NCBI GenBank assembly: GCA_041489115.1
Contig: JBGPQQ010000001.1
Span: 1 to 33,833 of the forward strand
Reading direction: 5' to 3'
Length of the DNA stretch: 33,833 nucleotides
Origin: Vicinamibacteria bacterium
Lineage (GTDB): Bacteria; Acidobacteriota; Vicinamibacteria; Fen-336
Position 1 is the stretch's first letter; each line of letters begins with the position of its first letter. The notes beneath the pieces are model-generated. The model was not told the origin of the DNA. It saw only the letters and a program-made list of their open reading frames with translations, and searched no databases. Positions 3,525-26,939 of the stretch are shown one piece after another. The position numbers and the translations under genes were made by a program.

Positions 3525-3537
3525 TCCTGATAGCCGC

Positions 3538-13214: not shown

Positions 13215-14087
13215 ATGAGGCTGGCGGTGATCGTGACACGGGTCTTCTCGGTTGCCTTCGTGTCCGCGGCACTGGTGGGCGCCGCTGCGGCACAGGAGCC
13301 GGGCGCCCCCGACGAGGAGGGCTGCAAGGACCTGCCCGTGCTGAGCCGGATGCCGGGCTGCAGCATCACCTCGTGCAGCGCCAAGGAGTACGACGCGGCC
13401 GAGGTGCAGGTGGGGGGCATGGATGACCAGAAGGGGGACTTCCAGAAGAAGTCCCTCGAAGGCCAGGTCGACGCAGTGACCTACATCTGCCCCGCGCGGC
13501 TGTCGCTGCTCCAGATCGGCCGCAACGCCGAGAACGCGCTGAAGACGGCGGGCTACACGGTCGTCTTCTCCGGGAAGAGCTGGAACGACAGCCCGATCGT
13601 CACGGTGCAGAAGGGCGTACGCTGGGTACAGGTGAAGGCGGAGCCGTGGAACGAGTTCACCAGCTACGAGCTCACCGCCGTGTCCGTCAAGGGCATGGCT
13701 CAGGAGATGGAGGCCACGGCCGAGCAGATGGCCGAGGAGATCGCGAGGACCGGCCACGTGGCCGTCTACGGGATCAACTTCGACACCGGCAGCGCGAAGG
13801 TCAAGCCCGCGTCCGACAAGGTCCTCGGCGAGATCGCGACGCTGCTCAAGAGGAACCCGGCCTGGAAGATGCGCGTGGAGGGCCACACCGACAACGTCGG
13901 GGCCAGGGCCACGAACCAGACGCTATCCGAGCAGCGCGCCGCGGCCGTGGTGGCCTGGCTGGCGAGCCACGGGATCGCCCCGGACCGGTTGGCGGCGCAG
14001 GGCTTCGGGGACGGCAAGCCGGTGGCGGACAACAAGACCGAGGATGGTCGGGGGAAGAACCGCCGCGTCGAGCTCGTGAAGCTGTAG
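13215..14087 (+). CDS. OmpA-family protein (N-terminal uncharacterised domain + C-terminal OmpA/peptidoglycan-binding domain)
   Basis: ATG at 13215 follows GGGGAGG, and a signal peptide ends in AAAAQEP. The C-terminus reads FDTGSAKV...VEGHTDNVG....N..LSEQRA..V...L...GI...RL...GFG...P.......GR..NRRVELV. Confidence 0.85.
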   Translation: MRLAVIVTRVFSVAFVSAALVGAAAAQEPGAPDEEGCKDLPVLSRMPGCSITSCSAKEYDAAEVQVGGMDDQKGDFQKKSLEGQVDAVTYICPARLSLLQIGRNAENALKTAGYTVVFSGKSWNDSPIVTVQKGVRWVQVKAEPWNEFTSYELTAVSVKGMAQEMEATAEQMAEEIARTGHVAVYGINFDTGSAKVKPASDKVLGEIATLLKRNPAWKMRVEGHTDNVGARATNQTLSEQRAAAVVAWLASHGIAPDRLAAQGFGDGKPVADNKTEDGRGKNRRVELVKL

Positions 14088-14115
14088 ATCGGGTCGCGGG
14101 CCGCCCGGCAGGAGA

Positions 14116-14343
14116 TCAGCCGCGCCAGGTCAGGAAGTCTGCCGGCCCGTCCGGCCGGGCACGGGCTTCGCGGATGCCCATCGCCACGAACAGCCCGGCG
14201 AGGATGGCCTGGGGCGGACGGCGGGCGTCGAGGCGCCCGATCGCGACCAGGATGCCGAAGAGGATGGCCTCCGGGCGCGGGGGGCAGCCGGGGATGCAGG
14301 AGCCCGCGTCGAGGTGGCGAAGGCGCAGCGACCGGCCGAGCAC
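14116..14343 (-). pseudogene. Remnant of a NuoB/HyfI-like hydrogenase small-subunit paralogue (internally deleted, C-terminal motif duplicated)
   Basis: LGRSLRLRHLDAGSC is joined directly to PGCPPRPEAILFGILVAIGRL and then to a second copy, PPQAILAGLFVAMGIREARARPDGP. The intact gene at 15408-16358 has LGRSLHVRQVDAGSCNGCE...(about 95 aa)...PGCPPPPQAILAGLFVAMGIREARARPDGP. Confidence 0.6.
14171..14217. repeat. 47-nt segment, 46/47 identical to 15493-15539 (3' end of the intact NuoB-like gene)
   Basis: Direct comparison: cggatgcccatcgcCacgaacagcccggcgaggatggcctggggcgg versus the same string with G at position 15. With one 1-nt indel, the similarity extends 8 nt further. Confidence 0.85.
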
Positions 14344-14356
14344 CCGGTGGGACCTG

Positions 14357-14895
14357 GGTGGCCATGAGCCGGACGAGCCGTTCGCGGAGCACGCCGGGTT
14401 GGCCGCAGGCGCCGACGATCACGGTCGGCCTGAGGGCACGAACGACAGCGCCGAGGTCCCGAGCCCCGCGGCCCAGGCCGCTGCTCTCCGCCAGCAGGCT
14501 GGGCCAGGCGAACGGGCGCTGGAAGTCCTCTACGGCGCTTCCCTCGACGAGGAGCCCCTGCCGGTCGACGAGGGCGACGGCGCGCCGCAGGCGGTCTCCC
14601 TCCAGACCGGCCTTCGGCCCCTCAGGCGGGGCTCCCGCCAACCGACGTACAGCTCGTCCTCGAGGAGGGAAGCGTCGTCGGTCCCGGCGTCCAGGCTGAT
14701 CGGCAGGGTCCCCGTGGGGTGGATCCCGGCCGCGGCCGTGTAGAGGGCGACCTTGCCGATCGCCATCGCCATCCCTCCGGCACCCTGGTCGCCCAGCCCG
14801 GAGACGCGCTGGTTGTCCGTCGCGACGACGAGGCGGATGTCCGGGCTGGGCGCGTTGGCCAGGACTTCCGCGACCCGCCCTCGATGGTCGGTCAT
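14357..14895 (-). pseudogene. Remnant of an NAD(P)-malic enzyme gene (lacks N-terminus and most of the NAD domain; internal frameshift near 14600-14617)
   Basis: Frame 1: IRLVVATDNQRVSGLGDQGAGGMAMAIGKVALYTAAAGIHP...LPISLDAGTDD..LLEDELYVGWREPRLRG, matching the malic enzyme core VTDG..ILGLGD.G..GM.I..GK..LY.. Frame 2 continues with ...RRAVALV...VEDFQRPFAWPSLL...GAVVRALRPTVIVGACGQPGV (EDF...A...L and the GAGxAG Rossmann start), after which homology ends. Confidence 0.6.
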
Positions 14896-15197
14896 CGGTC
14901 GCGGCGGGCGTCGCGCAGCGCGGCCTGGAACCGCACGGCCACGGCCTCGGGGTCGTGACGCTCCTCTCCGGTCAGCGTGAGGTACCACTCGAACGCGGGG
15001 CCGTCGATGCGGACCATCCAGCGCTCGGCGAGCCGCGAGCAGAGGATCTCGACCCTCCAGTCCCCGGCCATGTCCCGAAAGGCGTCCCGGATGGCCGTCT
15101 CCACGCCCTCCTTGCACGGCTCCCACGACGGGATCTCGCTTCGGATCTCGATGCTCGTCACCGGGGCTCCTTCAGGCAGAGGCATCACGCGGTTCAA
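14892..15197 (-). CDS. Hypothetical protein (about 97-101 aa)
   Basis: High GC3 and a non-repetitive, balanced composition (…WEPCKEGVETAIRDAFRDMAGDWRVEILCSRLAERWMVRIDGPAFEWYLTLTGEE…). Start options are TTG 15197, GTG 15188 and ATG 15185. I recognise no family. Confidence 0.4.
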   Translation of the reverse strand: MNRVMPLPEGAPVTSIEIRSEIPSWEPCKEGVETAIRDAFRDMAGDWRVEILCSRLAERWMVRIDGPAFEWYLTLTGEERHDPEAVAVRFQAALRDARRDR

Positions 15198-15359
15198 TCA
15201 CTCCCGCCATGTCACGAAGTACAACGGCCCCCTCGGGCTCGGTACGCAGTCGCGCAGCTCGAGCGTGTCGAGCCTCTCCGGGCGAGCGTGCGGGGTGAGC
15301 GACACCGTCCCCTCGCGCTCGAGCCGGAGCAGGCACTCGTCGAAGACGAGCCGCGACAC
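15198..15359 (-). CDS. Possible small ORF (53 aa from GTG) with coding-like codon bias, in the same frame as the upstream NuoB-like gene
   Basis: The frame is open from the TGA at 15408-15410 to the TGA at 15198-15200 and has high GC3 (…PPEVSRLVFDECLLRLEREGTVSLTPHARPERLDTLELRDCVPSPRGPLYFVTWRE). The only in-frame start candidate is GTG 15359, and its GGAGG is placed too close. Confidence 0.25.
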   Translation of the reverse strand: MSRLVFDECLLRLEREGTVSLTPHARPERLDTLELRDCVPSPRGPLYFVTWRE

Positions 15360-15407: not shown

Positions 15408-16358
15408 TCACTTCCCGGGGCCGGCCGGGCCCGCTTCCGCCCTGGCCGAGCCGGCGCCGGGGGCCGGTCCGTCGGGTCGAGCCCGCGCCTCCCGGATGCC
15501 CATCGCGACGAACAGCCCGGCGAGGATGGCCTGGGGCGGCGGCGGGCAGCCGGGGACGTAGATGTCGACCGGGATCACGCGGTCGACGCCGCCGCGCGAC
15601 GCGTACGTTCCCTCGCCGAAGAGGCCGCCGCTGCAGCCGCAGGCGCCCACCGCCACGACCACGCGGGGCTCGGGGGTCGCCTCCAGGGTCCGAAGGAGTG
15701 CGACCTCCATGTTCCGGGTGACGGGCCCCGTGACGAGCAGGAGATCCGCGTGCCGCGGGCTGGCCACGAAGTGGATCCCGAAGCGCTCGAGGTCGAAGAC
15801 GGGATTGGCCGTGGCAGCGATCTCGAGCTCGCAGCCGTTGCAGCTTCCCGCGTCCACCTGACGCACGTGAAGCGAGCGGCCGAGGCGGCCGCGGATCCGC
15901 GCCTTGAGGGCCTCGGCGGACTCGGCCAGCGAGGGCCCGGGCAGGCTCTCCTCCTGGCGGAACGTCGCGTGCCCCGTCGAATCGAGATCGAAGGAGGCAC
16001 GGCGGGTGAGCTGCTCGCGCGTGTACGTGGCGAGATCGAACTCGTTGCCGGCGGTCACCGCTCCCTCGGGGCACGCGGGGAGGCACTCGCGGCAGGAAAT
16101 GCACTGCCCGTAGGATAGGGACACGGTGCGGCTTGTCCTGAGTGAATACCCAGGGCTGGTCCTGGGCGAAGGCCCAGGGCGCGTCGGGTCCGTCTCACCG
16201 ACTTGGATCGCCCCCGTCGGGCAGGCGCGCGCGCAGTCCCCGCACGCGGTGCACCGCCGGAAGTCGATGACGGGGAAACCGAGGCGCAGCCGGGCCGCGA
16301 GTGGCCGCGGCTCGGTCACGATTCCGGTTCGCGCGCTGCGGGCCAGGATCCTGAACAT
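15408..16358 (-). CDS. Fused 2x[4Fe-4S] ferredoxin (HyfH/HycF/NuoI-like) + NuoB/HyfI/HycG-like small subunit
   Basis: ATG at 16358 follows GAGGAGGAG. The N-terminal half has CTACGDCARACP and CISCRECLPACP. The C-terminal half has GSCNGCE, VGACGCSGG and VPGCPP, so the NuoB-type cluster ligands are retained. Confidence 0.85.
   Translation of the reverse strand: MFRILARSARTGIVTEPRPLAARLRLGFPVIDFRRCTACGDCARACPTGAIQVGETDPTRPGPSPRTSPGYSLRTSRTVSLSYGQCISCRECLPACPEGAVTAGNEFDLATYTREQLTRRASFDLDSTGHATFRQEESLPGPSLAESAEALKARIRGRLGRSLHVRQVDAGSCNGCELEIAATANPVFDLERFGIHFVASPRHADLLLVTGPVTRNMEVALLRTLEATPEPRVVVAVGACGCSGGLFGEGTYASRGGVDRVIPVDIYVPGCPPPPQAILAGLFVAMGIREARARPDGPAPGAGSARAEAGPAGPGK
15493..15539. repeat. 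Partner of the 14171-14217 repeat, inside the intact NuoB-like gene
   Basis: 46/47 nt identical to 14171-14217. Confidence 0.85.
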
Positions 16359-16373
16359 CGCTCCTCCTCGCGC

Positions 16374-17957
16374 CTACCGGTCGTTTCCCGAGTACGACAG
16401 GTCGAAGCTCTTGTTGATCACGGGGAAGTCCGGGATGATGTTGCCCGGCACGGTCTGGGCGAGCCCGGGCCAGTTCTTGAAGCTCGGGTCCGTGACCTTG
16501 ACGCGGGTGAGACGCCCGTAGGCGTCCGTTTCCACCCAGTGCAGGCAGGGTCCGCGCCATCCCTCGGCCCACCCCAGGGCCGCCGAGAATGCCGGCAGCT
16601 CCGAAGGCAGCGGGGTGAGGAGAGGCGAGTCGGGGAGCGCGGAGAGCGCCTGACGGAGGATCGCGAGCGACTGCTCCACCTCCCTCGCCCGGACCATCAG
16701 CCGGGCGCGCACGTCGCCGCCCTCCTCCACCGGCACCTCGAAATGCAGCGAGTCGTAGGCGTCGTGCGGGTGGTCGCGGCGCAGGTCCTCGTCGATCCCG
16801 GAGGCCCGCGCGGCGAGGCCGACGACGCCGAGATCCCGGGCCGCCTCCGTCGAGAGCACCCCGGTCCCGTCCACCCGGTCGGTGAAGCTGCCCGAGTCGA
16901 TGAGCAGGGTGAACAGCGACTCGAAGTCGGCCTGGAACCGACGAAGGTGCGCCTGCAGCTCCTCTCGGCCCACGGCGGACAGGTCGGTTTTCACCCCACC
17001 CGGGGCCACCGTCCCGCGGAGCAGCCGGGACCCGAAGAGCCGCTCGTGCAGTGAGACGAGGCGCTCGCGCAACAGCTGGGCGTGCGCGGCGGGGGCGGCG
17101 AAGGCCACGTCGGTGGCGACGGCCCCGATGTCCGCGACGTGGTTGTAGAGGCGCTCGAGCTCCAGCAGGACGACGCGGAGGTGGCGCGCCCGGGGCGGCG
17201 GCGGGCAGCCGGTGAGCCTCTCGATCGCGTGGGCCCAGGCGAGAGCATGGCCCACCGCCGTGTCGCCGGAGACGGACTCGGCGAGATAGAGGCCGTGGCG
17301 CCACGGCAGCCGCTCGAAGCGCTTCTCCGTCCCCTTGTGCACGTAGAAGAGGCGGAGCTGCAGGTAGAGGACGGGCTCTCCGGCCACTCCGAAGCGGAAG
17401 TGCCCGGGCTCGATGATGCCGGCGTGCACGGGGCCCACCGGCACCTGGAAGACCCCTTCGCCCGTGACGGGACGGAACGGGTGAAGGGCGCCCTCCACGC
17501 GTGGCACGGAGCGGTCGTCGGCGAAGTCCTTGCGGAGCGCCCACTCGCCCTCGGGCCAGTCGTCGTGCAGGGAGACGCGGGTCGGGTTCGGGTGGCCCTC
17601 GGGCACGAGCCCGAACATGTCCATTACCTCGCGCTCGAACCAGTTCGCGGCGGGGTGCTTCGCCGCGATCGACGGGAAGCGGGGGTGCGCGGGATCGACG
17701 CGGGTGGAAACCCGCAGGAACGTCCGGTGTCTCGGCAGGAGCCAGACCTGGTGGAGGGCGTAGACCGCGTTCCAGACGCGCTCGTCGGTGGCGAAGAGAG
17801 ACGCCAGGCGGGCTCCCAGGCCGGACACGAGGCGGTCGGCCACGGCGGGGAGCGCTTCCGGCTCGACGTCGGCCCGCAGCTCCCCGGGGCGCGGCTCGCG
17901 GATGGAGCCCGCCGGGATGGCCAGGGCTTCGGCGACGACGGCGATCGCTGGGTTCAT
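16374..17957 (-). CDS. HycE/HyfG-like NuoC-NuoD fusion large subunit lacking all four NiFe cysteine ligands (Ehr-type large subunit)
   Basis: The N-terminus is NuoC-like (NWFEREVMDMFG). The NuoD-like core has GPVHAGIIEPGHFRF. The NiFe motif positions read ESVSGDTAVGH (17247-17279) and FDLSYSGNDR (16377-16406) in place of ERxCGxCxxxH and DPCxxCxxR. The ATG overlaps the upstream stop (ATGA at 17954-17957). Confidence 0.85.
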   Translation of the reverse strand: MNPAIAVVAEALAIPAGSIREPRPGELRADVEPEALPAVADRLVSGLGARLASLFATDERVWNAVYALHQVWLLPRHRTFLRVSTRVDPAHPRFPSIAAKHPAANWFEREVMDMFGLVPEGHPNPTRVSLHDDWPEGEWALRKDFADDRSVPRVEGALHPFRPVTGEGVFQVPVGPVHAGIIEPGHFRFGVAGEPVLYLQLRLFYVHKGTEKRFERLPWRHGLYLAESVSGDTAVGHALAWAHAIERLTGCPPPPRARHLRVVLLELERLYNHVADIGAVATDVAFAAPAAHAQLLRERLVSLHERLFGSRLLRGTVAPGGVKTDLSAVGREELQAHLRRFQADFESLFTLLIDSGSFTDRVDGTGVLSTEAARDLGVVGLAARASGIDEDLRRDHPHDAYDSLHFEVPVEEGGDVRARLMVRAREVEQSLAILRQALSALPDSPLLTPLPSELPAFSAALGWAEGWRGPCLHWVETDAYGRLTRVKVTDPSFKNWPGLAQTVPGNIIPDFPVINKSFDLSYSGNDR

Positions 17958-19462
17958 GCGCCCGCCTCCACGACCCGCAGGGCCGCGCGGATCAGCGCCA
18001 CGAGCGGCCCCGGCAGGTAGAACGCCGAGACGACGGCCAGCATCGCGGCGACGAGCGTCGTGCCCATGGCCAGGTCGAGCCGCTCCGGCAGTGCCCGACG
18101 ATCCCCGGGGTTGGCGTCGGGACCCGGGACGAGCCCTGGGTCTTCACCCAGGACAAGCTTGCCCACCTGGTAGAAGAAGCCGCAGAAGAGCACGACCAGG
18201 GCGGCGAGGAAGACCGCGGTCACCGCCGGGTGGGGACCGAAGAAGCCGGCCTTGAGGATCGTGATTTCGCTGAAGAACAGGCCGAAGGGCGGGGAGCCCG
18301 TCACCATGAGGGTCGCGAGGAGAAGCAGGCCGCTCGCGACCGGCGTTCGTGCCAGCGTGCCCTCGCCGATCTCGTCGAAATCGGACGACCGGTGGAGCTG
18401 GGCGAGCGTGCCCGCCGAGAAAAACGCCACTGGCTTGGCGAACGTGTGGTAGGTCATGTGGAGCAGGGCGCCGAAGGCAGCCGTCTCCCCCCCCAGGCCG
18501 AACCCCACCGCCATGATCCCCACGTGCTCGATGCTCGAGTAGGCCAGGAGGCGCTTGAGGTTCCACTGGATGAGGATGAAGGGCGTCGCGACGAGGACGG
18601 AGGCGAGCCCCAGGGCGAGGAGCAGCCGGCCCGAGAAGGCCGGCCCCAGGACGGCCTTCGACACGAGGTGCACCCGCAGGAGGGCGTAGAGAGAGCAGTT
18701 CATCATCCCCACCGCCATCAGGACGCCGGCGGGCGAGGGCGCCTCGCGGTAGGCATCCGGTTTCCAGGTGTGCATGGGAGCGAGGCCCGCCTTGGTGCCG
18801 TAGCCGATGAGGAGGAAGACGACGGCCAGCTTCACGGTGAACGGGTTGAGCTCGGCGGCGTGGGCGAGGAGCCGCGTCCAGTCGAGGGCCGACATCTCCT
18901 CGCCGAGGACGCCCTGGCCCGACGCGAAGAGCAGCACCGTGCCCAGGAGAGCGAAGGCGAGGCCCACGCTGCCGAGGACGAGGAACTTCCAGGCCGCCTC
19001 CAGGGAGGTGTCCCGGTTGTGGAAGGCCACCAGGAACACAGACGCGAGGGTGGTCGCCTCCACCGCGATCCAAAGGATGCCGAGGTTGTTGGACACGGCG
19101 ACGAGGAGCATCGCCGCCAGGTAGGCGGGCACGAGGGCCAGCAGCTCCGTTCTCCTCTTCGCCGGGACGAAGCCCGCTCGCTCGTTGCGCTCGAGGTATC
19201 CCACGGAGTAGAGGCCCGACAGCAGGCCCACGAAGGCGGTCAGGACGAGGACCAGCGCCGAGAGGCCGTCGACGCGTAGCGCCCCGCCGAAGGCGACGGG
19301 CGTCTCTCCGGCCAGAAACCGCGCGGCCGTGGCCAGGGCGAGGCCGAAAGTCGTCGCAAGGCCGCCCAGCAGGACGGCCTCCTTGGGCCGGCGCGGGCCG
19401 GGGAGCGCGCCGATGCCGGCGGTCGCGAGAGGAGCGGCGAGCGTCGCGAGGAGGAGGTTCAC
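17954..19462 (-). CDS. hyfF: HyfF/HyfD-like antiporter-type membrane subunit (NuoM/N family)
   Basis: A polytopic 502-aa protein with a proton-antiporter-like core (…WKPDAYREAPSPAGVLMA…, …LLAYSSIEHVGIM…). The GTG at 19462 lies 1 nt after the upstream stop. Confidence 0.8.
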   Translation of the reverse strand: MNLLLATLAAPLATAGIGALPGPRRPKEAVLLGGLATTFGLALATAARFLAGETPVAFGGALRVDGLSALVLVLTAFVGLLSGLYSVGYLERNERAGFVPAKRRTELLALVPAYLAAMLLVAVSNNLGILWIAVEATTLASVFLVAFHNRDTSLEAAWKFLVLGSVGLAFALLGTVLLFASGQGVLGEEMSALDWTRLLAHAAELNPFTVKLAVVFLLIGYGTKAGLAPMHTWKPDAYREAPSPAGVLMAVGMMNCSLYALLRVHLVSKAVLGPAFSGRLLLALGLASVLVATPFILIQWNLKRLLAYSSIEHVGIMAVGFGLGGETAAFGALLHMTYHTFAKPVAFFSAGTLAQLHRSSDFDEIGEGTLARTPVASGLLLLATLMVTGSPPFGLFFSEITILKAGFFGPHPAVTAVFLAALVVLFCGFFYQVGKLVLGEDPGLVPGPDANPGDRRALPERLDLAMGTTLVAAMLAVVSAFYLPGPLVALIRAALRVVEAGA

Positions 19463-19463
19463 C

Positions 19464-20120
19464 TCATCCCCTGAGGTTCGAGAGGCGGCTCGTGTCCATG
19501 GACTCGAAACGGTCCACGATGCGGTGCACGAGGACGCCCAGGACCAGCACGGCCAGGATCACGTCGAACGAGATGCCCAGCTCCACGATCAGGGGCATCC
19601 CCGAGGTCGCCCCCAACGCGACCAGGAACACGGCGTTCTCGACCGTGAGCAGGGCCAGGATCTGGGTGACGGCCTTGCGGCGCGTCACCATGAGGAAGAG
19701 GCCCATGAGGACCATCGAGAGGGCGACCCCGACCACCTGGTGGGGCACCCCCTGGCTGGCCCCGGCCATGCCGAGGCTCACCCGGTACCCCACCACGGTC
19801 AGGCCCAGGCACAGCAGCAGCGACGCCGGCACGTTGACGTAGGGCTCGATCTCCCGCCGGATGCCCACCCGGTCGATCACCTTCTGCAGGAACCAGGGGA
19901 TCAAGACGGCCTTCAGGACGATCGTGAGGCCGGCGGTGACGAAGAGGTGGAACCGATGCTCGGTCAGGCCCATAGCGACGCCCACCGCGCCGAGGAGCAG
20001 CGACTGCAGGCCGTAGAGCCGGATGGCGACGACGAGCGCCTTCTGGCCCACCATGAGGTAGACGGTCACCAGCATCCCCGCCGCGCACAGGATCACGAAG
20101 TCGTTGGTCATTCCGGTCAC
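19464..20120 (-). CDS. hyfE: HyfE-like small membrane subunit (NuoK-related)
   Basis: A 218-aa hydrophobic protein occupying the same position as HyfE in hyf operons. The start is GTG 20120 or ATG 20111, directly abutting the upstream TAG at 20121. Confidence 0.7.
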   Translation of the reverse strand: MTGMTNDFVILCAAGMLVTVYLMVGQKALVVAIRLYGLQSLLLGAVGVAMGLTEHRFHLFVTAGLTIVLKAVLIPWFLQKVIDRVGIRREIEPYVNVPASLLLCLGLTVVGYRVSLGMAGASQGVPHQVVGVALSMVLMGLFLMVTRRKAVTQILALLTVENAVFLVALGATSGMPLIVELGISFDVILAVLVLGVLVHRIVDRFESMDTSRLSNLRG

Positions 20121-21062
20121 CTAGAAGAACCGCATCGCCAGCGCGAGGAAGCCCAGGCCGAGCGACACCGCCATCAGCTCCGGGACCCGGAAGAAGCGGA
20201 GCTTGGCGTTGGTCGTCTCGACGAGGACCACCACCACCGCGAGGGCGACGATCTTCGCGGCCAGGAGGAGCGCGGCCACGCCGAGCGCCTGTGGCCGGAG
20301 GCTCGTGGCGACGCCGAGGGGCAGGAAGAGGTTGACGAGCAGCGTCATGAAGAGCAGCTCCTTCACCGCGGAGGCCCACTCGACGAGGGCGAGGTCCGGA
20401 CCGGAGTACTCGAGGACCATGGCCTCGTGGATCATGGTCAGCTCGAGGTGGGTGGCCGGGTTGTCCACCGGGATACGGCCCGCTTCGGCGAGGAGGACGA
20501 TGAACAGCGCCGCCGCCGCCAGCAGCTCGCTGGGGTGGATTGAGACCCCGCGCTCAGCGGTGCGCCGCGCGAGCTCGCCCAGGTTGAGCGAGCCGGCGGA
20601 GAGCCCCGCCGTGAAGAGGGCCAGCATCATGGCCGGCTCCGCCAGCGCCCCGACCGTCATCTCGCGGCTCGCGCCCATGCCGCCGAAGGGGCTGCCCGTG
20701 TCCAGAGCGGCCGCCGCCAGCGCGAAGCGCCCCAGGGCCAGGAGGCCGACCAGCAGCAGGATGCCGCCCGCCCCCTCGAGGGGCGGCGAGGTGATGAGCG
20801 TCGGGACGAGGGCGGTGGCCGCGAGCGCGCTCGCGAAGTAGACGCGCGGGCCGGCCACGAAGACCCACGACGCGGTCGTCGAGCGCACGGGCTCCTTGCG
20901 CAGCAGCTTCGCCAGGTCGCGGTACGGCTGCCACAGCGGCGGGCCCTGCCGGACCTGGAAGGCCGCCTTCATCTTCTTGATCAGCCCGCGCAGGAGCGGG
21001 GCGAGCAGAAGGAAGCCGGCGGCCTGCGCGACCGCGAAGAAGGCATCGTTCATCCCCGCCAC
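20121..21062 (-). CDS. hyfC: HyfC/HycD-like membrane subunit (NuoH family)
   Basis: …LLAPLLRGLIKKMKAAFQVRQGPPLWQPYRDLAKLL… is a typical HycD/NuoH N-terminus. ATG 21053 overlaps the upstream TGA (ATGA), and GTG 21062 is an alternative. Confidence 0.8.
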   Translation of the reverse strand: MAGMNDAFFAVAQAAGFLLLAPLLRGLIKKMKAAFQVRQGPPLWQPYRDLAKLLRKEPVRSTTASWVFVAGPRVYFASALAATALVPTLITSPPLEGAGGILLLVGLLALGRFALAAAALDTGSPFGGMGASREMTVGALAEPAMMLALFTAGLSAGSLNLGELARRTAERGVSIHPSELLAAAALFIVLLAEAGRIPVDNPATHLELTMIHEAMVLEYSGPDLALVEWASAVKELLFMTLLVNLFLPLGVATSLRPQALGVAALLLAAKIVALAVVVVLVETTNAKLRFFRVPELMAVSLGLGFLALAMRFF

Positions 21063-23089
21063 CAGAGGTAGACCACGAGAACGAGGACGAGAGCCATGAC
21101 GTAGCCGAGGTAGGCGTGGAGGCTCCCCGCCTGGATGACCCGCATGCGGGTCGCCAGGCCCAGGACCGTGCGCGTGAGGGGACGGTACACGAAGCGCTCG
21201 AAGGTGGGCTCGACCTCGGCCCGGTAGCGCACCTCTCTCGCGTAGTAGGGCGCCGCCTCCAGCGTCGAGACCTCACGGGTGGGGCGGTAGATGGCGCTGA
21301 AGATCATCATCAGGGGCTTCGAGAAGGCCGTCGCGGTGTACTCCGTCTCCGGCGAGAGCTCGCCGCCGCATCCCCAGGTCGGGGCGGTGCGGCGACTGAA
21401 GGCGGTGCGCGTCGCGACGAACGTCGCGACGGCCAGCGCGGCGGCCAGGGCGAGAGCTGCCGTGGGAAGAGCGAGCCAGTCGAAACCGCCGGGGCCCGGG
21501 GCGATCCGGAAGACGTCTCCCACCAGCGCCGCGCCCGGCCGGGCGCCGATCAGGCCGCCGGCGAGGCCGGCCAGCGCCTCGACCACGGGGCCGGGGAAGA
21601 GCCCCAGCGCGACGCAGGCCGCGGCGAGGCCGGCCTGGGGCGCCAGCATCAGCCAGTGTGACTCGCGCGCCTCGCTCGCGGCCGCGCTGCGGGGCAACGC
21701 CAGGAACGTGATGCCGAAGGCCTTGACGAAGCAGGCGGCGGCGAGCGCGGTCGTCAGCCCCAGCAGCGCGGCGCCGATCGGGAAGGCGACCCGGACGAAG
21801 GTGTCCGTCGAGGTGTGGAAGCCCAGCAGGAGCGACTGGAACACCAGCCACTCGCTCACGAAGCCGTTGAGGAAGGGCAGACCCGAGATGGCCGCCGAGG
21901 CGACGAGGAAGAACCCCGCCGTCCACGGCATGCGGCGGGCGAGGCCGCCCATCTCCTCGATGTGGCGAGTGCCGGTGGCGGCGCCGACACCGCCCGCCCC
22001 GAGAAAGAGCAGCCCCTTGAAGAGGGCGTGGTTGAGGACGTGGAGAAGCGAAGCCGCGAAGGCGAGCACCGCCAGCTCGGGCCGTCCCGTCGACCGAGCG
22101 AGCATCCCGACCCCGGCGGCCACGAGGATGATGCCGATGTTCTCGATGCTGTGATAGGCGAGCAGTCGCTTGAGGTCGTGCTGCATCAGCGCGTAGAGGA
22201 CTCCCATCACCATCGAGACGGCGCCCACGGCGAGGACGAGGCCGCCCCAGGCCCCGGCCGGCACCCCCAGGCCCGCGACGCACACGCGGAAGATCCCGTA
22301 GATTCCGACCTTGATCAGGACGCCGGACATGAGCGCGGAGATCGGGCTCGGCGCTGCCGGGTGGGCCTCGGGAAGCCAGACGTGGAGAGGGATCACCCCG
22401 GCCTTCACCCCGAATCCGGCGAGGAACAGCAGGAACACGACGTCGCGGGAGGGCGCCGCCGCCGCGTGTCGTCCGAGGATGTCGGTGAAGGCGAGCGAGT
22501 GCCCGCCCGAGGCGAGGAGGAAGAAGCCCGCGACGAGGCAGCCTGTGCCGACGTGCGACATGGCCAGGTAGAGGAAGGCGGCCCGGCGGGACTGTGCGTG
22601 CTCGTGCTCGGTCGCCACCAGGGCGACCGTGGCCAGGGTCATGATCTCCCAGGCGAAGAGGAAGCCGATGGCGTCGCCCGCCAGGAAGACCATCTCGACC
22701 GAGCCCAGCAGCACGTTGAAGCCGACGCCGACGAAGGCGACTCGGCCAGGGCTCGACCCGTGGGCGAAGTAGGCCACGCTGTAGACGGCGACCGCGACGC
22801 CCAGGATGGCGAGGACCACGAGGAACCAGCCCGAGAGGGCGTCCACGGCGTAGCCCAGCGTCAGCCCCGAGGCGGCGTGGCTGATGAAGGGACCCCGGGC
22901 AGCGGCGCCGCCGGCGCCGAGACCGAAGATCCCTATACCGCCAGTGAGCAGGGACGCCGCGGCGGACCCGCCGAAGGCCGTCCAGCGACTCGCGCGCGGG
23001 CTGCGGTGGAAGGCGAGCGTGAACGCGATCGCCGCCAGACGGGCGGCGGCGGCGAGGAGCAGCCAGGCCGCGGGCTCAGCGGCGTGCAA
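21050..23089 (-). CDS. hyfB: HyfB-like antiporter-type membrane subunit (NuoL family)
   Basis: A 679-aa polytopic protein with …HVWLPEAHPAAPSPISALMSG… and …LLAYHSIENIGI…. The TTG start at 23089 is preceded by GAGAGGGGG. Confidence 0.8.
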   Translation of the reverse strand: MHAAEPAAWLLLAAAARLAAIAFTLAFHRSPRASRWTAFGGSAAASLLTGGIGIFGLGAGGAAARGPFISHAASGLTLGYAVDALSGWFLVVLAILGVAVAVYSVAYFAHGSSPGRVAFVGVGFNVLLGSVEMVFLAGDAIGFLFAWEIMTLATVALVATEHEHAQSRRAAFLYLAMSHVGTGCLVAGFFLLASGGHSLAFTDILGRHAAAAPSRDVVFLLFLAGFGVKAGVIPLHVWLPEAHPAAPSPISALMSGVLIKVGIYGIFRVCVAGLGVPAGAWGGLVLAVGAVSMVMGVLYALMQHDLKRLLAYHSIENIGIILVAAGVGMLARSTGRPELAVLAFAASLLHVLNHALFKGLLFLGAGGVGAATGTRHIEEMGGLARRMPWTAGFFLVASAAISGLPFLNGFVSEWLVFQSLLLGFHTSTDTFVRVAFPIGAALLGLTTALAAACFVKAFGITFLALPRSAAASEARESHWLMLAPQAGLAAACVALGLFPGPVVEALAGLAGGLIGARPGAALVGDVFRIAPGPGGFDWLALPTAALALAAALAVATFVATRTAFSRRTAPTWGCGGELSPETEYTATAFSKPLMMIFSAIYRPTREVSTLEAAPYYAREVRYRAEVEPTFERFVYRPLTRTVLGLATRMRVIQAGSLHAYLGYVMALVLVLVVYLWWRG

Positions 23090-23107: not shown

Positions 23108-23569
23108 TCATCCCCGTGGTCCCGCCCCCTGCAGCCACGCGGGGTCGTAGACCAGGCGGAGACAGTGCGGACAAGGGGCGACGCCGCGGCGCTGGCGGAT
23201 GATCTGATCGAGCTTCGAATGCAGGCGCACGTGGCAACCAGAGCAGACACTCGCCACCAGGCGGACCACCGCCGGCTGTCGTCCCGCCCGGAGCGCCCGG
23301 TCGTAGGCTTCGAGGATCCCGGGCGAGATCCGCGCCCCGAGCCCCTGGCGTTCGTCCGCCATCTCGTCGTACACGGGCGTCCGCCGCGCGGCTTCACGCT
23401 CCAACAGAGCGGCGTCCAGCTCGGCCAGGTGGAGCAACGCGGAGATCTCGAGGGTCGTGCTCGTCGGGCCCGCGGTGGGCTGGCGCGCGGGGGCCGGCGG
23501 CTCGATCGGCGTCGCCTTCTTCCGGGGCGCCCGTCGGCGGGACCGGGCGCCGGTGTCGGCTTCGCTCAT
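23108..23569 (-). CDS. Coiled-coil + C4 Zn-ribbon protein (COG1579 / zf-RING_7 type), short paralogue
   Basis: The C-terminus reads CSGCHVRLHSKLDQIIRQRRGVAPCPHCLRLVY. ATG 23569 overlaps the upstream TGA (ATGA) and follows GGAG. The track start at 23584 is an alternative. Confidence 0.7.
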   Translation of the reverse strand: MSEADTGARSRRRAPRKKATPIEPPAPARQPTAGPTSTTLEISALLHLAELDAALLEREAARRTPVYDEMADERQGLGARISPGILEAYDRALRAGRQPAVVRLVASVCSGCHVRLHSKLDQIIRQRRGVAPCPHCLRLVYDPAWLQGAGPRG

Positions 23570-24186
23570 GGCTGCTCCGTCCATTCAGGGTCGTACATGA
23601 GCCGCTCGCAGTGGGGACACGGGACGAGGCGGGCCTCGCTCTGGAACTCGGAGGTGACCGCGATCGGCAGGCGATGAAAGCACCCCCAGCAGACGGCCCC
23701 GTGCGTGCCGATGGCCGCCGGCTGCCGGCCGAGGCGAAGCGCCTTCGCGTAGATCTCGAGCGCCACGCCAGGGATGCGGCTCATGAGCACGGTCCGGCGC
23801 TCGGCGAGATCGGCACACGCGTCTCGCAGGTCGGCGGACGCGGCGAGGGCGTCGGCCTGCTTCCTTTCCGCCTGTCGCATGACAAGAGCCACCCGCCTCT
23901 CCTTGCCTCGGAGCGCGCGCCGCAGCTTCTCCACCTCGGGAATGGCGGCTCCCGACTGCTCGAGCTGGTGCAGCTCCTCCCGGGCCGCCTCCAGCTCCGG
24001 AGTTAACCGTGTGAGGTCGCTCGTCGTCCGGTCGAGGATGGCGAGGGACTGCGCCACGGAAGCCTCGCGCTTCGCGAGGCCCTCGTCGAGGGCCACGAGG
24101 TCGAGCAGGGCTCGCACGTCGCCCCGGGCCGGCGCCACGGCGACCTTCGCCGTCTTTCTGCGGCACGTGTGCTCAACTCCGTCCAT
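23566..24186 (-). CDS. Coiled-coil + C4 Zn-ribbon protein (COG1579 / zf-RING_7 type), long paralogue
   Basis: ATG 24186 lies 5 nt after GAGGAGG. The coiled-coil region (…ELEAAREELHQLEQSGAAIPEVEKLRRALRGKERR…) is followed by CWGCFHRLPIAVTSEFQSEARLVPCPHCERLMY. Confidence 0.75.
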   Translation of the reverse strand: MDGVEHTCRRKTAKVAVAPARGDVRALLDLVALDEGLAKREASVAQSLAILDRTTSDLTRLTPELEAAREELHQLEQSGAAIPEVEKLRRALRGKERRVALVMRQAERKQADALAASADLRDACADLAERRTVLMSRIPGVALEIYAKALRLGRQPAAIGTHGAVCWGCFHRLPIAVTSEFQSEARLVPCPHCERLMYDPEWTEQP

Positions 24187-24658
24187 CGACACCTCCTCGT
24201 CCCGCATGGGGCGGCCGCGAGGGCGGCGAGATCGCGGCGCGGCCGCTGCGCAGGGCCCGGCGGAGAACCTCGGGTGGGGCGGGCCAGGACACGAATGCCG
24301 TTGCTCCGCCCTCGAGCGCGTCCTTGAGCCCGCGGGCGGCGGTCGTCGCGACGACGACGACTGCCGTGGAGGGAGAGATCCTCCGGCACTCCCGCAGGGC
24401 GACCATCCCCTTGAGCCCGAGGCGGTCGGCATTGACGATGAGCGCCGTCACCTCGCTCGCTCCGAGAAACGCCGGGGCTTCGCCGAGCTCGGCGAGCCGC
24501 ACAACGAAGGCGCCGTCCCGGCCGACGAGCTCCCGCGCGACGAAGGCCTCGAAATCGGCGGGCCATTCGTGCTCGTAGCCGGCCAGGGCCACGTGCAGCG
24601 GAGCGTGCTCGGGATCCTGTGCAGACGTGCCCATGGGTACCGCAGACCCGGACTGCAC
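24173..24658 (-). CDS. Stand-alone degenerate receiver (CheY-like) domain protein
   Basis: The layout is receiver-like (HVALAG…, ALIVNADRLGLKG, VVVVATT, GATAFVSWP), but the acidic pair, the phospho-Asp position and the conserved Lys appear substituted by eye. The start is uncertain (GTG 24658 or ATG 24634, no clear RBS). Confidence 0.5.
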   Translation of the reverse strand: MQSGSAVPMGTSAQDPEHAPLHVALAGYEHEWPADFEAFVARELVGRDGAFVVRLAELGEAPAFLGASEVTALIVNADRLGLKGMVALRECRRISPSTAVVVVATTAARGLKDALEGGATAFVSWPAPPEVLRRALRSGRAAISPPSRPPHAGRGGVDGRS

Positions 24659-24787
24659 GGGTCATGCCCTGCACGCGGGTCAGCCTCGAACTAGCTCATC
24701 TGGCTATGCTTATCTAGCAGGGTCTCCGGCCGTCTCGATCTGGAAGAGGCGGAAATATGCCGATTCCGCACTCGACGCTCCCCGGTG

Positions 24788-24804
24788 AAGCCCGTGGGGT
24801 GCCA
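24788..24804 (-). promoter_or_regulatory. Candidate sigma54 (-24/-12) promoter reading toward the receiver/Zn-ribbon/Ehr genes
   Basis: The minus strand reads TGGCAC-CCCAC-GGGCTT. The GG and GC have canonical spacing, but the -12 element is GGGC rather than TTGC. The site lies 19 nt downstream of the stop of the sigma54-type activator gene. Confidence 0.3.
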
Positions 24805-24822
24805 TTCCGGCATCTCGGGGGA

Positions 24823-26211
24823 TCAGAGTTCCGGCTTCGTTGCCGGACTGGCAGTCCGAGGCCCCGCCCCGGGACGGATCTGGTAGCTCCGGAGCTTGGT
24901 GTGCAGGGTACGCAGCCCGATCCCCAGCACGCGGGCGGCGTCTTTCAGCGTCGGGTAGGCCTCGACGGTGCGGCGGATGATCTCCCGCTCCGCGTCCTCC
25001 ATCCGCGTGCCGACCGGAAGCCGGATCTCGGCCGCCACGGTCGCTTCGCGCACGTTCGCGGGCAGGTCGGCCACGTCGATCTCCACCTTGGGGCTGGTGA
25101 GGGTGAGGCTCTCCATGCAGTTGCGAAGCTCCCGGATGTTGCCCGGCCAGCGATAGCGGGCGAGCTGGGCCAGGGCGTCCGGGGTCAGCCGCTTGGGAGC
25201 GAGGTCGGACTGTCGCGCGACGTCCTCGAGGAAACGCTGGGCGAGCACCGGGATCGCGTCCTGGCGGTCCCGCAGGGGCGGGACGGTGAGCGTGACGACC
25301 TTGAGGCGATAGTAGAGGTCGGAGCGGAAGCGCCCGCTCTCGACGAGCGCTTCCAGGTCGGCGTTGCTCGCGGCGAGGAGATGGATGTCGACCGCGATCT
25401 TGCGCGTGCCGCCCACGCGCCGGAACTCGCGCCGCTCGAGCGCCCGCAGGAGCTTGGCTTGGCAGCCGAGGCCCATCTCGTTGACCTCGTCGAGGAAGAG
25501 GGTGCCCCCGTCGGCGGTCTCCATCACGCCTTCCTTGGGCCGATCCGCGCTCGTGAAGGCCCCCCGCTCGTGGCCGAACAGCTCGCTCTCCAGGAGGGCC
25601 TCGGAGAGCGTCGCGCAGTTCACCGCGACGAAGGGGCCGTCCCGCCGGGGCCCCAGCGAGTGGAGAGCCCGCGCGATCAGCTCCTTGCCCGTCCCGCTCT
25701 CCCCGAGGATGAGGATGGTCGACTGGTGCCGGGCGAGCCTCTTGACGGTGTCGAAGAGCTCGAGCATGGCTCGCGAGCGTCCGATGATCCCGAGCCGGTC
25801 CATCTCCGCGGCGGCCCGCGACGGAGGCGTCGCCAGGACCCCGCTCGCGCTCGCCCGCTCGATGCCCCGGGCCAGGGTCGCGAGGAGGCTCTCGATGTCG
25901 AGGGGCTTGGTGAGGAAATCCGTGGCGCCGCGCTTCATCGCCTCGACGGCGGTGTCGACGGTCCCGAAGCCGGTGACGACGATGGCGGGCAGCCCGGGGT
26001 GCTGCTCGAGCACGGCGTCGAGGACGGCCGCGCCCTCCATGTCCGGGAGCTTCATGTCGAGGATGAGCGCGTGCAGCTTCTCGCGGCGGGCGGCGGCGAG
26101 CGCCGCGCGGCCGTTCGAGGCCTGGCGCACCGCGTAGCCGTTCTTCTCGAGCACCCAGGCCAGGCTCGACCGGCTCTCGGCGTGGTCCTCGACGAGGAGG
26201 ATGGTCTGCAT
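24823..26211 (-). CDS. NtrC-family response regulator (REC + sigma54-interaction AAA+ + Fis-type HTH)
   Basis: The receiver is canonical (LLVEDH, LILDMKLPDMEG, VVTGF, FLTKP). Walker A is GESGTGKE and Walker B is LFLDEV. The sigma54-contact loop reads GAFTSA (25546-25563). The C-terminal HTH is LKDAARVLGIGLRTLHTKL. The ATG overlaps the kinase stop (TGATG). Confidence 0.9.
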   Translation of the reverse strand: MQTILLVEDHAESRSSLAWVLEKNGYAVRQASNGRAALAAARREKLHALILDMKLPDMEGAAVLDAVLEQHPGLPAIVVTGFGTVDTAVEAMKRGATDFLTKPLDIESLLATLARGIERASASGVLATPPSRAAAEMDRLGIIGRSRAMLELFDTVKRLARHQSTILILGESGTGKELIARALHSLGPRRDGPFVAVNCATLSEALLESELFGHERGAFTSADRPKEGVMETADGGTLFLDEVNEMGLGCQAKLLRALERREFRRVGGTRKIAVDIHLLAASNADLEALVESGRFRSDLYYRLKVVTLTVPPLRDRQDAIPVLAQRFLEDVARQSDLAPKRLTPDALAQLARYRWPGNIRELRNCMESLTLTSPKVEIDVADLPANVREATVAAEIRLPVGTRMEDAEREIIRRTVEAYPTLKDAARVLGIGLRTLHTKLRSYQIRPGAGPRTASPATKPEL

Positions 26212-26939
26212 CAGCCGGCCCGCGGCCCCGCCGGCAGCGAGAGGCTGGCGCTGGTGCCTTCGCCCTCGCGGCTTCGCACGGCCAGGGTGCCCCCGTGAGC
26301 CTCCACGATGCGGCGCGCGATGGGGAGCCCCAGCCCGGTCCCGCCCTCGCGCGTCGTGAAGAACGCGTCGAACACGCGGGGGAGGACCTCCTCCGCCATG
26401 CCCTCGCCGGTGTCGCGCACCACGATCTCGAGCGCCCGCGCGTCGCCCCCGGCCTCGATCGCGATCGCGCCGCCGGCCGGCGTCGCCTGGATCGCGTTCA
26501 GCACCAGGTTCAGCACCGCGTGCTTCAGCTGGAAGCCGTCCGCCACGACGGTCTCGGGCCCGCCCGCGACGGCCAGGGAGAGCGACACCCCCTTGCGGGC
26601 GCACTCCGGGCCGATGAACGTCACGAGGTCCGCGAGGAGAGGGCGCACGGCCACCGGCTCCAGCTTCGGGCGGGGCGGCCGGGCGAAGCGCAGGAACTCC
26701 GTCACGAAGTTGTCGAGGCTGCGCAGCTCGTGGGCGATCTTGCCGATCACCTCGAAGACGTGGCGGTTGCGGTCGGGGACGATCTCCGACAGCTCCTGCT
26801 CGAGGATGCCCAGGTTGATCTGCAGGGCGTTGAGCGGGTTCCTGACCTCGTGGGCGATGCCGGCGGCGATCGCCTCGACGAGGGGCGCGTGCGGCTCCGC
26901 GGCGTGCTCCAGGCCGTCTTCGCCCGTCCGGTCACTCAC
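26211..26939 (-). CDS. Soluble minimal histidine kinase (HisKA + HATPase_c only, no sensor or TM domain)
   Basis: The H-box is GIAHEVRNPLNAL, the N-box LVLNAIQA, G1 DTGEGM and G2 GGTGLGLPIA. Only ~25 residues precede the H-box. The start is GTG at 26939. Confidence 0.85.
   Translation of the reverse strand: MSDRTGEDGLEHAAEPHAPLVEAIAAGIAHEVRNPLNALQINLGILEQELSEIVPDRNRHVFEVIGKIAHELRSLDNFVTEFLRFARPPRPKLEPVAVRPLLADLVTFIGPECARKGVSLSLAVAGGPETVVADGFQLKHAVLNLVLNAIQATPAGGAIAIEAGGDARALEIVVRDTGEGMAEEVLPRVFDAFFTTREGGTGLGLPIARRIVEAHGGTLAVRSREGEGTSASLSLPAGPRAG

Follow-up and report, generated by a model that had tools for sequence, protein, structure and literature searches.

A six-gene Ehr-type complex in a Vicinamibacteria bacterium: a Hyf-like relative of group-4 hydrogenases without NiFe ligands

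What does a hydrogenase-like membrane complex do once its catalytic subunit has lost every ligand of the NiFe site? The question is raised by six genes in a 33,833-nt stretch of DNA from a Vicinamibacteria bacterium (Acidobacteriota; GenBank assembly GCA_041489115.1, contig JBGPQQ010000001.1, positions 1 to 33,833 of the forward strand), referred to below in its whole length as the window (72% GC). We conclude with high confidence that the six-gene unit encodes a functional complex of the energy-converting hydrogenase-related (Ehr) type, and not a hydrogenase. The complex descends from a formate-hydrogenlyase/Hyf-like group-4 [NiFe] hydrogenase and has lost the capacity to bind NiFe, and the locus is a further member of the Ehr class, which is widespread and has been described before. 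The six genes are as follows.

21050..23089, minus strand: EhrA, antiporter-type membrane subunit resembling HyfB, 679 aa (full-length match to NCBIfam hydrogenase 4 subunit B, E=2.4e-189; 37% identity to Escherichia coli HyfB)
20121..21062, minus strand: EhrB, HyfC/HycD/NuoH-like membrane subunit, 313 aa (Pfam NADHdh, E=6.5e-44; top E. coli match HyfC, 37% identity)
19464..20120, minus strand: EhrC, small membrane subunit resembling HyfE, NuoK-like in its C-terminal half, 218 aa (NCBIfam hydrogenase 4 membrane subunit, E=3.2e-26)
17954..19462, minus strand: EhrD, antiporter-type membrane subunit resembling HyfF, 502 aa (match to NCBIfam hydrogenase 4 subunit F, E=1.9e-114; 37% identity to HyfF)
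16374..17957, minus strand: EhrL, NuoC-NuoD/HycE-like large subunit without NiFe ligands, 527 aa (Pfam Complex1_30kDa and Complex1_49kDa)
15408..16358, minus strand: EhrS, HycF/NuoI-like 2x[4Fe-4S] ferredoxin domain (residues ~1-130) and HycG/NuoB-like proximal-cluster domain (~150-295), 316 aa (Pfam Fer4 families and Oxidored_q6)

The six open reading frames (ORFs) all run in one direction between 15408 and 23089, and their GC content at third codon positions (GC3), 0.87-0.97 with the maximum in EhrC, is of the coding type. ATGA overlaps join EhrA to EhrB (21050-21053) and EhrD to EhrL (17954-17957), and the remaining intergenic gaps are 0, 1, and 15 nt. EhrB has an alternative start, an internal ATG at 21053, which gives the ATGA overlap with the EhrA side, where the stop codon occupies 21050-21052. 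An earlier note on this DNA, made by a model from the sequence alone, had described six co-directional, tightly packed genes for HyfB-, HyfC-, HyfE-, and HyfF-like membrane subunits, a NuoC-NuoD/HycE-like large subunit, and a ferredoxin-plus-NuoB-like subunit. Our ORF analysis bears out this layout together with the positions of the overlaps, and the assignments were reproduced by Pfam, NCBIfam, and BLASTP against E. coli K-12 proteins, all three of which agree. The top E. coli matches are HyfB, HyfC, HyfE, HyfF, HycE/HyfG, and, for EhrS, HycG and HycF; for every one of the six subunits the Hyf/Hyc match is much stronger than the Nuo counterpart. EhrL matches HycE/HyfG at 35% identity over its full length, including the NuoC-like N-terminal domain. 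The note had also reported that hyp/hycI, formate dehydrogenase, and NuoEFG genes are absent, and indeed Pfam and tblastn with E. coli proteins revealed no Hyp, HycI, HycH, FdhF, or NuoE/F/G homologues in the 33.8-kb window. NuoA and NuoJ are not among the six operon genes, and no separate search was made for either.

The former NiFe site of EhrL is marked by two replaced motifs.

17247..17279, minus strand: former L1 motif, E227-S-V-S230-G-D232-T233-A-V-G-H237, replacing E-R-x-C-G-x-C-x-x-x-H (HycE alignment)
16377..16406, minus strand: former L2 motif, F-D-L-S521-Y-S-G524-N-D-R527, replacing D-P-C-x-x-C-x-x-R (HycE alignments)

The best PDB sequence match of EhrL is E. coli HycE (7z0s_E; phmmer E=1.3e-80, full length, 33% identity). 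In the phmmer alignment, HycE RVCGICGFAH faces SVSGDTAVGH (EhrL residues 228-237) and HycE DPCYSCTDR faces DLSYSGNDR (residues 519-527), which substitutes all four NiFe ligands: C to S230, C to T233, C to S521, and C to G524. The reading of both CxxC motifs as replaced, with the residue numbers and coordinates that the note had given them, was thus correct. EhrL has two cysteines only (251 and 471), neither of them at a ligand position or conserved in relatives, so that no cysteine from elsewhere in the protein fills an L1 or L2 position; the close relatives have 0-5 Cys each. The same L1 and L2 replacements recur in at least 113 of the 120 closest database clusters, that is, in more than 110 close relatives from independent metagenomes, and a sequencing or assembly error is therefore excluded as the source of the motifs. 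The EhrL C-terminus is the residue aligned with HycE R537, which we take to be the HycI cleavage site, and there is no extension beyond it. This ending is not diagnostic by itself, because Ech-type hydrogenases are likewise made without a C-terminal extension.

An AlphaFold2 model of EhrL (mean predicted local distance difference test score 89, predicted template modelling score 0.91) has HycE as its top fold match in the PDB, with a template modelling (TM) score of 0.92, followed by NuoCD; our PDB search found no solved Ehr structure, HycE being the nearest. When EhrL is aligned with the complex I subunit Nqo4 of Thermus thermophilus, D283 falls on Asp139, I182 on His38, and G231 on Tyr87. 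The quinone head-group ligands His38 and Tyr87 are thus not present in EhrL, and Asp139 alone has a counterpart. The EhrL bit scores are 275 for HycE, 157 for T. thermophilus Nqo4, 129 for MbhL, and 105 for MbsL.

To place the family, a HMMER scan of 1.84 billion cluster representatives gave 1177 clusters at E<=1e-30, and the best 150 (50%-identity representatives) were examined. About 100 of these are Cys-less proteins with conserved replacements, again as expected of real sequence and not of assembly errors, and 22 are true CxxC/CxxC proteins, three of them HycE/HyfG-like. The Cys-less family has the motifs AE[RS][IV]-S-G-D-[ST/E/N]-x-x-x-H and S-F-N-L-S-Y-[SA]-G-N-D. We compared 86 Cys-less members with the 22 Cys-containing siblings column by column. 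At L1 the Cys-less family has S or A at position 230 (86/86), G231 (82/86), and D232 (74/86, compared to 0/22 in the siblings); at L2 it has S521 (80/86), Y522 (78/86), G524 (84/86), and D526 (86/86). D283 is found in 72 of the 86 Cys-less proteins and in 3 of the 22 with cysteines. The columns that differ consistently between the groups are the four ligand positions and the two aspartates, D232 and D283. After deletion of the ligand columns, 115 sequences gave a rough neighbour-joining tree that has neither support values nor labelled HydDB references. EhrL falls there within a large clade of mostly Cys-less proteins, in which two representatives do have the cysteines. A Cys-containing clade adjoins it, HycE/HyfG lie outside, and NuoCD is far removed as the outgroup. 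This placement, together with the bit scores for HycE and Nqo4 (275 and 157), rules against EhrL being a NuoD proper. The nearest named relatives are metagenome-assembled genomes (MAGs) of Vicinamibacteria (Acidobacteriota), whose large subunits are 85-87% identical.

The shared replacement motifs, the tree placement, and a subunit architecture like that of published Ehr complexes all support the Ehr assignment, which the note had already proposed. The literature places Ehr near group 4f or 4a hydrogenases, without CxxC motifs and with function unknown (PMC10284858, PMC10432482, PMC6349859, PMC4378227). Our search of papers up to 2026 found no experimentally established Ehr function, and the function is still called unknown there, as the note had stated (PMC10284858, PMC10432482, PMC13194489). 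Its further statement that the class is known only from comparative genomics has to be corrected, since there are proteomic and transcript data for its expression in Geobacter and Mycobacterium tuberculosis (PMC7894505, PMC6728331). The Geobacter sulfurreducens complex, EhrA-1/A-2/B/C/D/L/S (GSU0739-45), includes a NuoL-like EhrA, a HyfE-like EhrC, EhrL, and EhrS, and all of the Geobacter Ehr subunits were detected by proteomics (PMC7894505). Compared by their published descriptions, the Geobacter genes, the six-gene clusters of Sulfobacillus, and M. tuberculosis Rv0082-Rv0087 have the same kinds of subunits as found here, with a Cys-less large subunit and the cluster ligands kept (PMC7894505, PMC4378227, PMC6728331); like the present locus, they have no maturation or input-module genes.

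Whereas the NiFe ligands are gone, the remaining electron-transfer and ion-translocation residues are in place. EhrS retains all 12 (8+4) of its Fe-S cysteines: its ferredoxin domain has two CxxCxxCxxxCP motifs (Cys 36/39/42/46 and 86/89/92/96) aligned with the HycF ligands, and C173, C176, C240, and C271 align with the proximal-cluster ligands of HycG/HyfI/NuoB, so that the four Cys which the note had credited to the NuoB-like part are the ligands. In EhrA, the residues associated with ion translocation are E148, K229, K260, H350, H354, K358, and E413, and in EhrD they are E135, K224, H335, H339, K343, and E399. Both proteins keep the Glu of transmembrane helix (TM) 5, the Lys of TM7, the central His/His/Lys, and the Glu of TM12, exactly in the HyfB and HyfF patterns, respectively. 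EhrB keeps the acidic and basic residues common to HycD, HyfC, and NuoH, including a charged network shared with NuoH (E142=NuoH E157, D200=D213, E207=E220, and E218=E228), and the membrane glutamates of EhrC (in TVEN and IVELG) align with HyfE. The ratio of nonsynonymous to synonymous substitution rates (dN/dS), calculated by the Nei-Gojobori method with orthologues from two related contigs, is 0.16-0.37 across the six genes and lowest for EhrL (0.16 against the orthologue in related locus L001). All six genes are under purifying selection. This selection, together with the retained Fe-S and pump residues, argues that the complex is maintained and is presumably a working machine rather than a decaying hydrogenase.

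Two known systems invite comparison with the complex. In common with the E. coli Hyf and Hyc complexes (group 4a), it has the NuoC-NuoD fusion, antiporter patterns identical to those of HyfB and HyfF, the HycE fold, and a sigma54-type activator nearby (FhlA/HyfR in E. coli, an NtrC-type regulator here). Unlike them, it has no NiFe ligands and no C-terminal extension, and HycB/HyfA, HyfD, FdhF, HycH/I, and Hyp are absent; HycF and HycG, separate proteins in E. coli, are fused into one here. With complex I it shares a homologous modular architecture, the E-channel and antiporter charges, and an Asp, D283, at the quinone-site position of Nqo4 Asp139. It differs from complex I in having Ile182 and Gly231 in place of His38 and Tyr87, a CxxC in place of the tandem Cys of NuoB, and no NuoEFG, and the scores to complex I proteins are about half of those to Hyc/Hyf.

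A pattern scan with one genome per GTDB species gave at least 600 candidate stretches, and 593 of the 600 listed encode a relative. The six-gene unit is present in at least 593 species genomes, among them Acidobacteriota, Verrucomicrobiota, Nitrospirota, Rokubacteria, Actinobacteria, Chloroflexota, Omnitrophota, the Candidate Phyla Radiation (CPR), Thaumarchaeota, and others. The best 80 loci from the scan, which also include Firmicutes and Methylomirabilota (with Rokubacteria), were combined with three other relatives into a sample of 83 loci, labelled here with L numbers; of these, 11 retain the four cysteines and 71 are of the Cys-less kind. Nearly everywhere the genes are arranged as A-B-C-D-L-S or S-A-B-C-D-L. 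Two Nitrospirota MAGs (L043 and L056) carry two full six-gene sets (A-B-C-D-L-S twice) per 21-kb stretch. In L093 (80% identity, positions 1-3917) there is an extra HyfB-like subunit upstream, a seven-gene version comparable to that with EhrA-1 and EhrA-2 in Geobacter; the present locus has a single EhrA.

Small subunits are of more than one kind. In 45 of 79 related loci (e.g., L017-L019, L021, L033, L048, L055, and L075), no HycF-like domain is detectable in the small subunit by tblastn at E<=1e-3, whereas the window has the three-cluster form with fused HycF and HycG domains, in common with other Acidobacteriota, Verrucomicrobiota, and the Cys-containing siblings. These sequences suggest at least two Ehr subtypes, one with a fused three-cluster small subunit and a minimal one with a single cluster and no ferredoxin domain. 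The Actinobacteria loci with the S-first order, which we take to be that of M. tuberculosis Rv0082-87, are among those without a detectable ferredoxin domain.

Neighbouring genes were compared by clustering the ORFs of the 83 loci by BLASTP and by tblastn with E. coli HypA-F, HycI, HycH, HycB, HydN, FdhF, and NuoE/F/G. The simple ORF caller gave spurious antisense ORFs at high GC (e.g., cluster 6), and we therefore relied solely on the tblastn table and the loci of low GC. Within 10 kb of the operon in ~85 related loci, tblastn detected no maturation, formate-dehydrogenase, or NADH-module genes; the only matches were ferredoxin-type similarities to HydN/HycB in L076 and L087 and matches of the FhlA AAA+ domain to sigma54 activators. 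Besides the six subunits and regulators nothing recurs, no outside family being found in more than nine loci. Both the BLASTP clusters and tblastn therefore led us to reject the idea of a conserved redox partner gene. The commonest neighbour is an ArsR-type/SmtB helix-turn-helix (HTH) regulator directly upstream, found in at least nine loci from several phyla (L012, L014, L032, L061, L066, L074, L080, L094, and others), which presumably mirrors M. tuberculosis Rv0081 in the arrangement Rv0081-Rv0087. In close relatives (73-88% identity) the six genes are flanked by unrelated genes. One of these, L087 (88% identity), has GcvH-like, four-cluster NrfC-type ferredoxin and NrfD-type quinone-interacting membrane protein genes (12708-15355) after a 220-nt gap behind EhrS, a single case that marks a possible link to the quinone pool. 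The earlier note had seen unusual candidate partners among the neighbours in the window; the genes upstream instead make up a cassette of regulators, and the relatives have no partner gene in common. The features of this cassette, from its distal end toward EhrA, are as follows.

26211..26939, minus strand: sensor-less histidine kinase core, HisKA and HATPase_c, 242 aa (Pfam; L001 orthologue 75% identity)
24823..26214, minus strand: NtrC-type sigma54-dependent response regulator, REC, AAA+, and HTH_8 domains (Pfam Sigma54_activat, E=1.9e-66; Response_reg, E=6.4e-27)
24799-24813 and 24757-24771, minus strand: two palindromic GTGCC-N5-GGCAC-like sites, candidate enhancer-binding-protein sites (conserved blocks in the window/L001 intergenic alignment)
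24655..24669, minus strand: candidate sigma54 -24/-12 promoter GGGCATGACCCGTGC, ~20 nt upstream of the pseudo-receiver ORF (GG-N10-GC spacing kept)
24173..24634, minus strand: pseudo-receiver, 153 aa, at the head of the predicted transcription unit (weak Pfam Response_reg match, E=0.008)
23566..24186, minus strand: Zn1, second coiled-coil and zinc-ribbon protein, 206 aa from an ATG with a GGAGG site (Pfam Zn_ribbon_9, E=5.5e-6, below gathering score)
23108..23584, minus strand: Zn2, coiled-coil protein with a C4 zinc ribbon, 158 aa, separated by 18 nt from EhrA downstream (match to Pfam Zn_ribbon_9 below gathering score, E=0.002)

The Zn2, Zn1, and pseudo-receiver ORFs overlap or sit within 18 nt of each other, and the cassette also lies upstream of the operon in L001-L003 and L091. 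The NtrC-type regulator adjoins the operon in L001, in L091, and in several Nitrospirota and Rokubacteria loci. In the pseudo-receiver, as read from the sequence, the acidic DD pocket and the conserved Lys (KP to WP) are gone; its L001 orthologue (3865-4392, 79% identity) is the first gene after the sigma54 activator. A Zn2 orthologue with 66% identity occupies the same position in L001 and L091. Zn1 has PDB sequence matches to HP0958 (3na7; E=8.8e-5 over residues 70-199) and CT398 (4ilo; E=0.014), both of which are sigma54 (RpoN)-binding proteins. There are two tandem HP0958-like zinc-ribbon genes in the window and only one in L001, which marks a lineage-specific duplication in the window. 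We considered the zinc-ribbon proteins as novel Ehr subunits and rejected this, since they resemble HP0958 and CT398, travel with the sigma54 regulator, and are absent in many close relatives that keep the six genes; the first two of these properties point to a regulatory role.

At the position orthologous to the candidate promoter, L001 has GGGCACGACTCCTGC, with two mismatches to TGGCAC-N5-TTGC, and only the intergenic comparison with L001 yielded a conserved promoter candidate. The palindromes between 24757 and 24813 may be binding sites for an enhancer-binding protein. Two similar ones are present in L091, and the GG-N10-GC element lies ~90-130 nt beyond the palindromes in the window. A TGGCAC match at 24790-24804 was rejected as a sigma54 promoter, being better explained as half of a palindromic enhancer site. 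We predict that the locus is a nine-gene sigma54-dependent transcription unit, under the control of the histidine kinase and NtrC-type regulator next to it, together with the pseudo-receiver and the HP0958-like zinc-ribbon proteins. Ehr regulators vary by lineage: where this locus has a sigma54 two-component cassette with HP0958-like proteins, L094 and others have an ArsR-type regulator. A lineage-specific sigma54 cassette suggests conditional expression.

In what we consider, with moderate confidence, to be the best explanation of these observations, the complex is a functional redox-driven ion translocator with a ferredoxin-type donor and an acceptor other than protons, under sigma54 control. 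Reasoning from Ech and the membrane-bound hydrogenase (MBH), group-4 enzymes that likewise have no extra input module, we propose that a low-potential protein donor, most likely reduced ferredoxin, docks on the HycF-like domain of EhrS. No dehydrogenase, HycB-like, NuoEFG, or FdhF gene accompanies the operon or is found in ~85 loci, which would leave the HycF-like domain as the only exposed input; the self-contained nature of the six-gene unit, which has no conserved partner, likewise speaks for a donor that diffuses freely, such as ferredoxin. The two ferredoxin-type clusters would hand the electrons on to the HycG-like domain with its proximal cluster, from which they would reduce the acceptor. 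The pocket for the latter would lie where EhrL, EhrS, and EhrB meet, with the family-specific S230, D232, T233, D283, S521, and G524 as its lining. The lack of NiFe ligands and of hyp/hycI genes nearby argues that this acceptor is not H+. A redox or protonation change in the pocket, plausibly via D232 and D283, would drive translocation of H+ (or Na+) through EhrB, EhrC, EhrD, and EhrA. A functional precedent for such a mechanism, although a much more distant relative, is the Pyrococcus MBS/MBX complex (membrane-bound sulfane reductase, 6U8Y), reportedly a group-4 relative without a NiFe site that reduces a non-proton acceptor using ferredoxin; the Mrp-type small subunits of MBS and MBH (6CFW) are absent here.

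The weakest step is the acceptor itself. Our best guess for an acidobacterium is membrane menaquinone, which would make the complex a ferredoxin:quinone oxidoreductase, possibly a reversible one. Menaquinone is preferred because two antiporter modules would suit a large energy span, larger than that from ferredoxin to H+, and because D283 mimics the complex I site, its place at the Nqo4 Asp139 position being a hint of a complex-I-like site. We advance ferredoxin-to-quinone chemistry only tentatively. More speculative still, and in our estimation somewhat improbable, is the idea that the former NiFe pocket, with S-G-D-[ST] (230-233), D283, and S-Y-[SA]-G-N-D (521-526), has become a new active or coupling site that holds a non-NiFe cofactor or metal, or that binds quinone or another acceptor in a mode unlike that of complex I.

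Several observations weigh against a ferredoxin-driven, sigma54-controlled ion translocator that reduces quinone. Biochemical data have been reported for no Ehr (PMC10284858, PMC10432482). The residues at the quinone-ligand positions of complex I are I182 and G231, and the first proximal Cys pair of EhrS is a hydrogenase-type CxxC, not the CC of NuoB. Ehr also occurs in CPR, Saganbacteria, and Margulisbacteria genomes, and no quinone biosynthesis pathway was found in Riflemargulisbacteria (PMC6349859), so that a quinone acceptor common to all Ehr is doubtful. The loci with no HycF-like domain (45 of 79) limit the ferredoxin-docking argument to the subtype found here. As for regulation, the sigma54 element in the window has three mismatches to the consensus, and a consensus scan of the window gave 16 matches compared to 21.8 expected by chance, i.e., no enrichment.

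Other explanations differ mainly in what they make of the missing partner and the altered pocket. The six genes could encode a membrane anchor or coupling unit to which a separately encoded dehydrogenase (formate dehydrogenase, molybdopterin oxidoreductase, or similar) docks, as does HycB-FdhF in formate hydrogenlyase. Such a formate dehydrogenase-Ehr complex has been proposed in Riflemargulisbacteria and Saganbacteria (PMC6349859), formate raises the abundance of Geobacter Ehr subunits (PMC7894505), and suitable genes can be pointed to, namely the GcvH-like, NrfC-like, and NrfD genes 220 nt downstream in L087 and, in the window, a 1273-aa xanthine-dehydrogenase-family protein 7 kb from the operon. 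However, a candidate partner is conserved beside the operon in none of ~85 loci, genes on the opposite strand intervene between the xanthine-dehydrogenase-like gene and the operon, with weak counterparts in 2 of 83 loci, and a HycB-like connector is not encoded here, all of which makes this arrangement unlikely. To about the same degree we doubt that the Fe-S chain is a dead end which senses the redox state of the ferredoxin pool and tunes an Mrp-like cation/proton antiporter made of EhrA-D, with no net turnover at the former NiFe pocket. This would explain why no acceptor site, neither NiFe nor the quinone Tyr/His ligands, is recognizable, why Ehr is carried by organisms both with and without quinones (PMC6349859), and why many members have a single proximal cluster only; the carboxylates gained by the pocket, D232 and D283, could then be a redox-linked protonation site. 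Yet it is without precedent in the enzyme superfamily, the conserved three-cluster wire of the present subtype resembles a through-path for electrons, and the pocket residues shared with true hydrogenases are near-invariant, which suggests that chemistry takes place there.

The two remaining possibilities concern the hydrogenase past of the complex. A non-functional relic, decaying under relaxed selection, is what the loss of the catalytic ligands and the decayed NuoB-like fragment 1 kb downstream of the operon might suggest, and the Geobacter Ehr has been treated as non-functional in one paper (PMC13194489). We strongly disfavour this reading and give it very little weight: dN/dS is low in all six genes, EhrL being the most constrained, the reading frames are intact and tightly coupled, the Fe-S and pump residues are intact, and the replacement residues are themselves conserved across phyla, while proteomics finds every subunit of the Geobacter complex (PMC7894505). 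Least probable of all, to the point that we barely entertain it, is a working hydrogenase with NiFe or another H2-activating metal site bound via non-cysteine ligands. Much conserved scaffold is common to the Cys-containing siblings and the Cys-less group, and new O-donors (S, D, and T) stand at or beside the ligand positions; but all four thiolate ligands are gone, the two Cys that remain are not conserved, and neither the window nor the ~85 related loci have hyp or hycI. We know of no [NiFe] hydrogenase without Cys ligands.

Ehr is commonly seen as linking group-4 hydrogenases to complex I, and its carriers include soil Acidobacteriota, nitrifiers, Geobacter, and M. tuberculosis. What the present locus contributes to this class is a signature motif, evidence that the complex functions, a distinction between subtypes, and a lineage-specific sigma54 control cassette. 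The conserved replacement motif brings in a pair of carboxylates, one of which coincides with the quinone-site Asp of complex I, and the combination of purifying selection with intact Fe-S and pump residues argues against the view of a non-functional relic. Ehr subtypes with and without a ferredoxin-type domain should not be presumed to be mechanistically alike. The source organism is uncultivated. If the pocket should prove to be a new site, Ehr would be a very widespread respiratory ion pump, encoded in at least 593 species genomes including those of ammonia-oxidising archaea, Nitrospira, Acidobacteriota, Actinobacteria, and CPR.

A few other features of the window were recorded. Directly 3' of EhrS, on the minus strand, are two adjacent small ORFs of 53 aa (15198-15359) and 101 aa (14892-15197) with coding-like GC3 (0.89-0.90). 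They have no Pfam match and no tblastn counterpart in the 83 related loci; no terminator-like site was found between them and the operon, and a sigma70 promoter/terminator scan downstream of EhrS found none. An ORF of 174 aa at 3765-4289 (minus strand), which has a weak match (E=1.9e-5) to AbiEii-type nucleotidyltransferase toxins, overlaps a coding-like plus-strand ORF, and this gene call is uncertain. The xanthine-dehydrogenase/aldehyde-oxidase-family protein encoded at 4334-8155 (minus strand) is a single chain of 1273 aa with 2Fe-2S domains, a hammerhead domain, and two molybdenum cofactor (MoCo)-binding domains; its ~400 N-terminal residues have no Pfam match. As an Ehr partner it was rejected, given that its gene shows no synteny with Ehr operons in relatives. 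About 1 kb downstream of the operon, at 14140-14340 (minus strand), lies the remnant of a second NuoB/HycG-like gene. It has LGRSLRLRHLDAGSC (EhrS 159-173) joined directly to IPGCPP...GIREARARPDGPA (EhrS 268-299), residues 174-267 being deleted, and it contains a 60-nt internal tandem duplication. Its DNA is 78% identical to 15463-15575 along 113 nt (tblastn E=2.5e-12). The remnant has the look of a decayed paralogue or a recombination scar, possibly of an assembly artefact.

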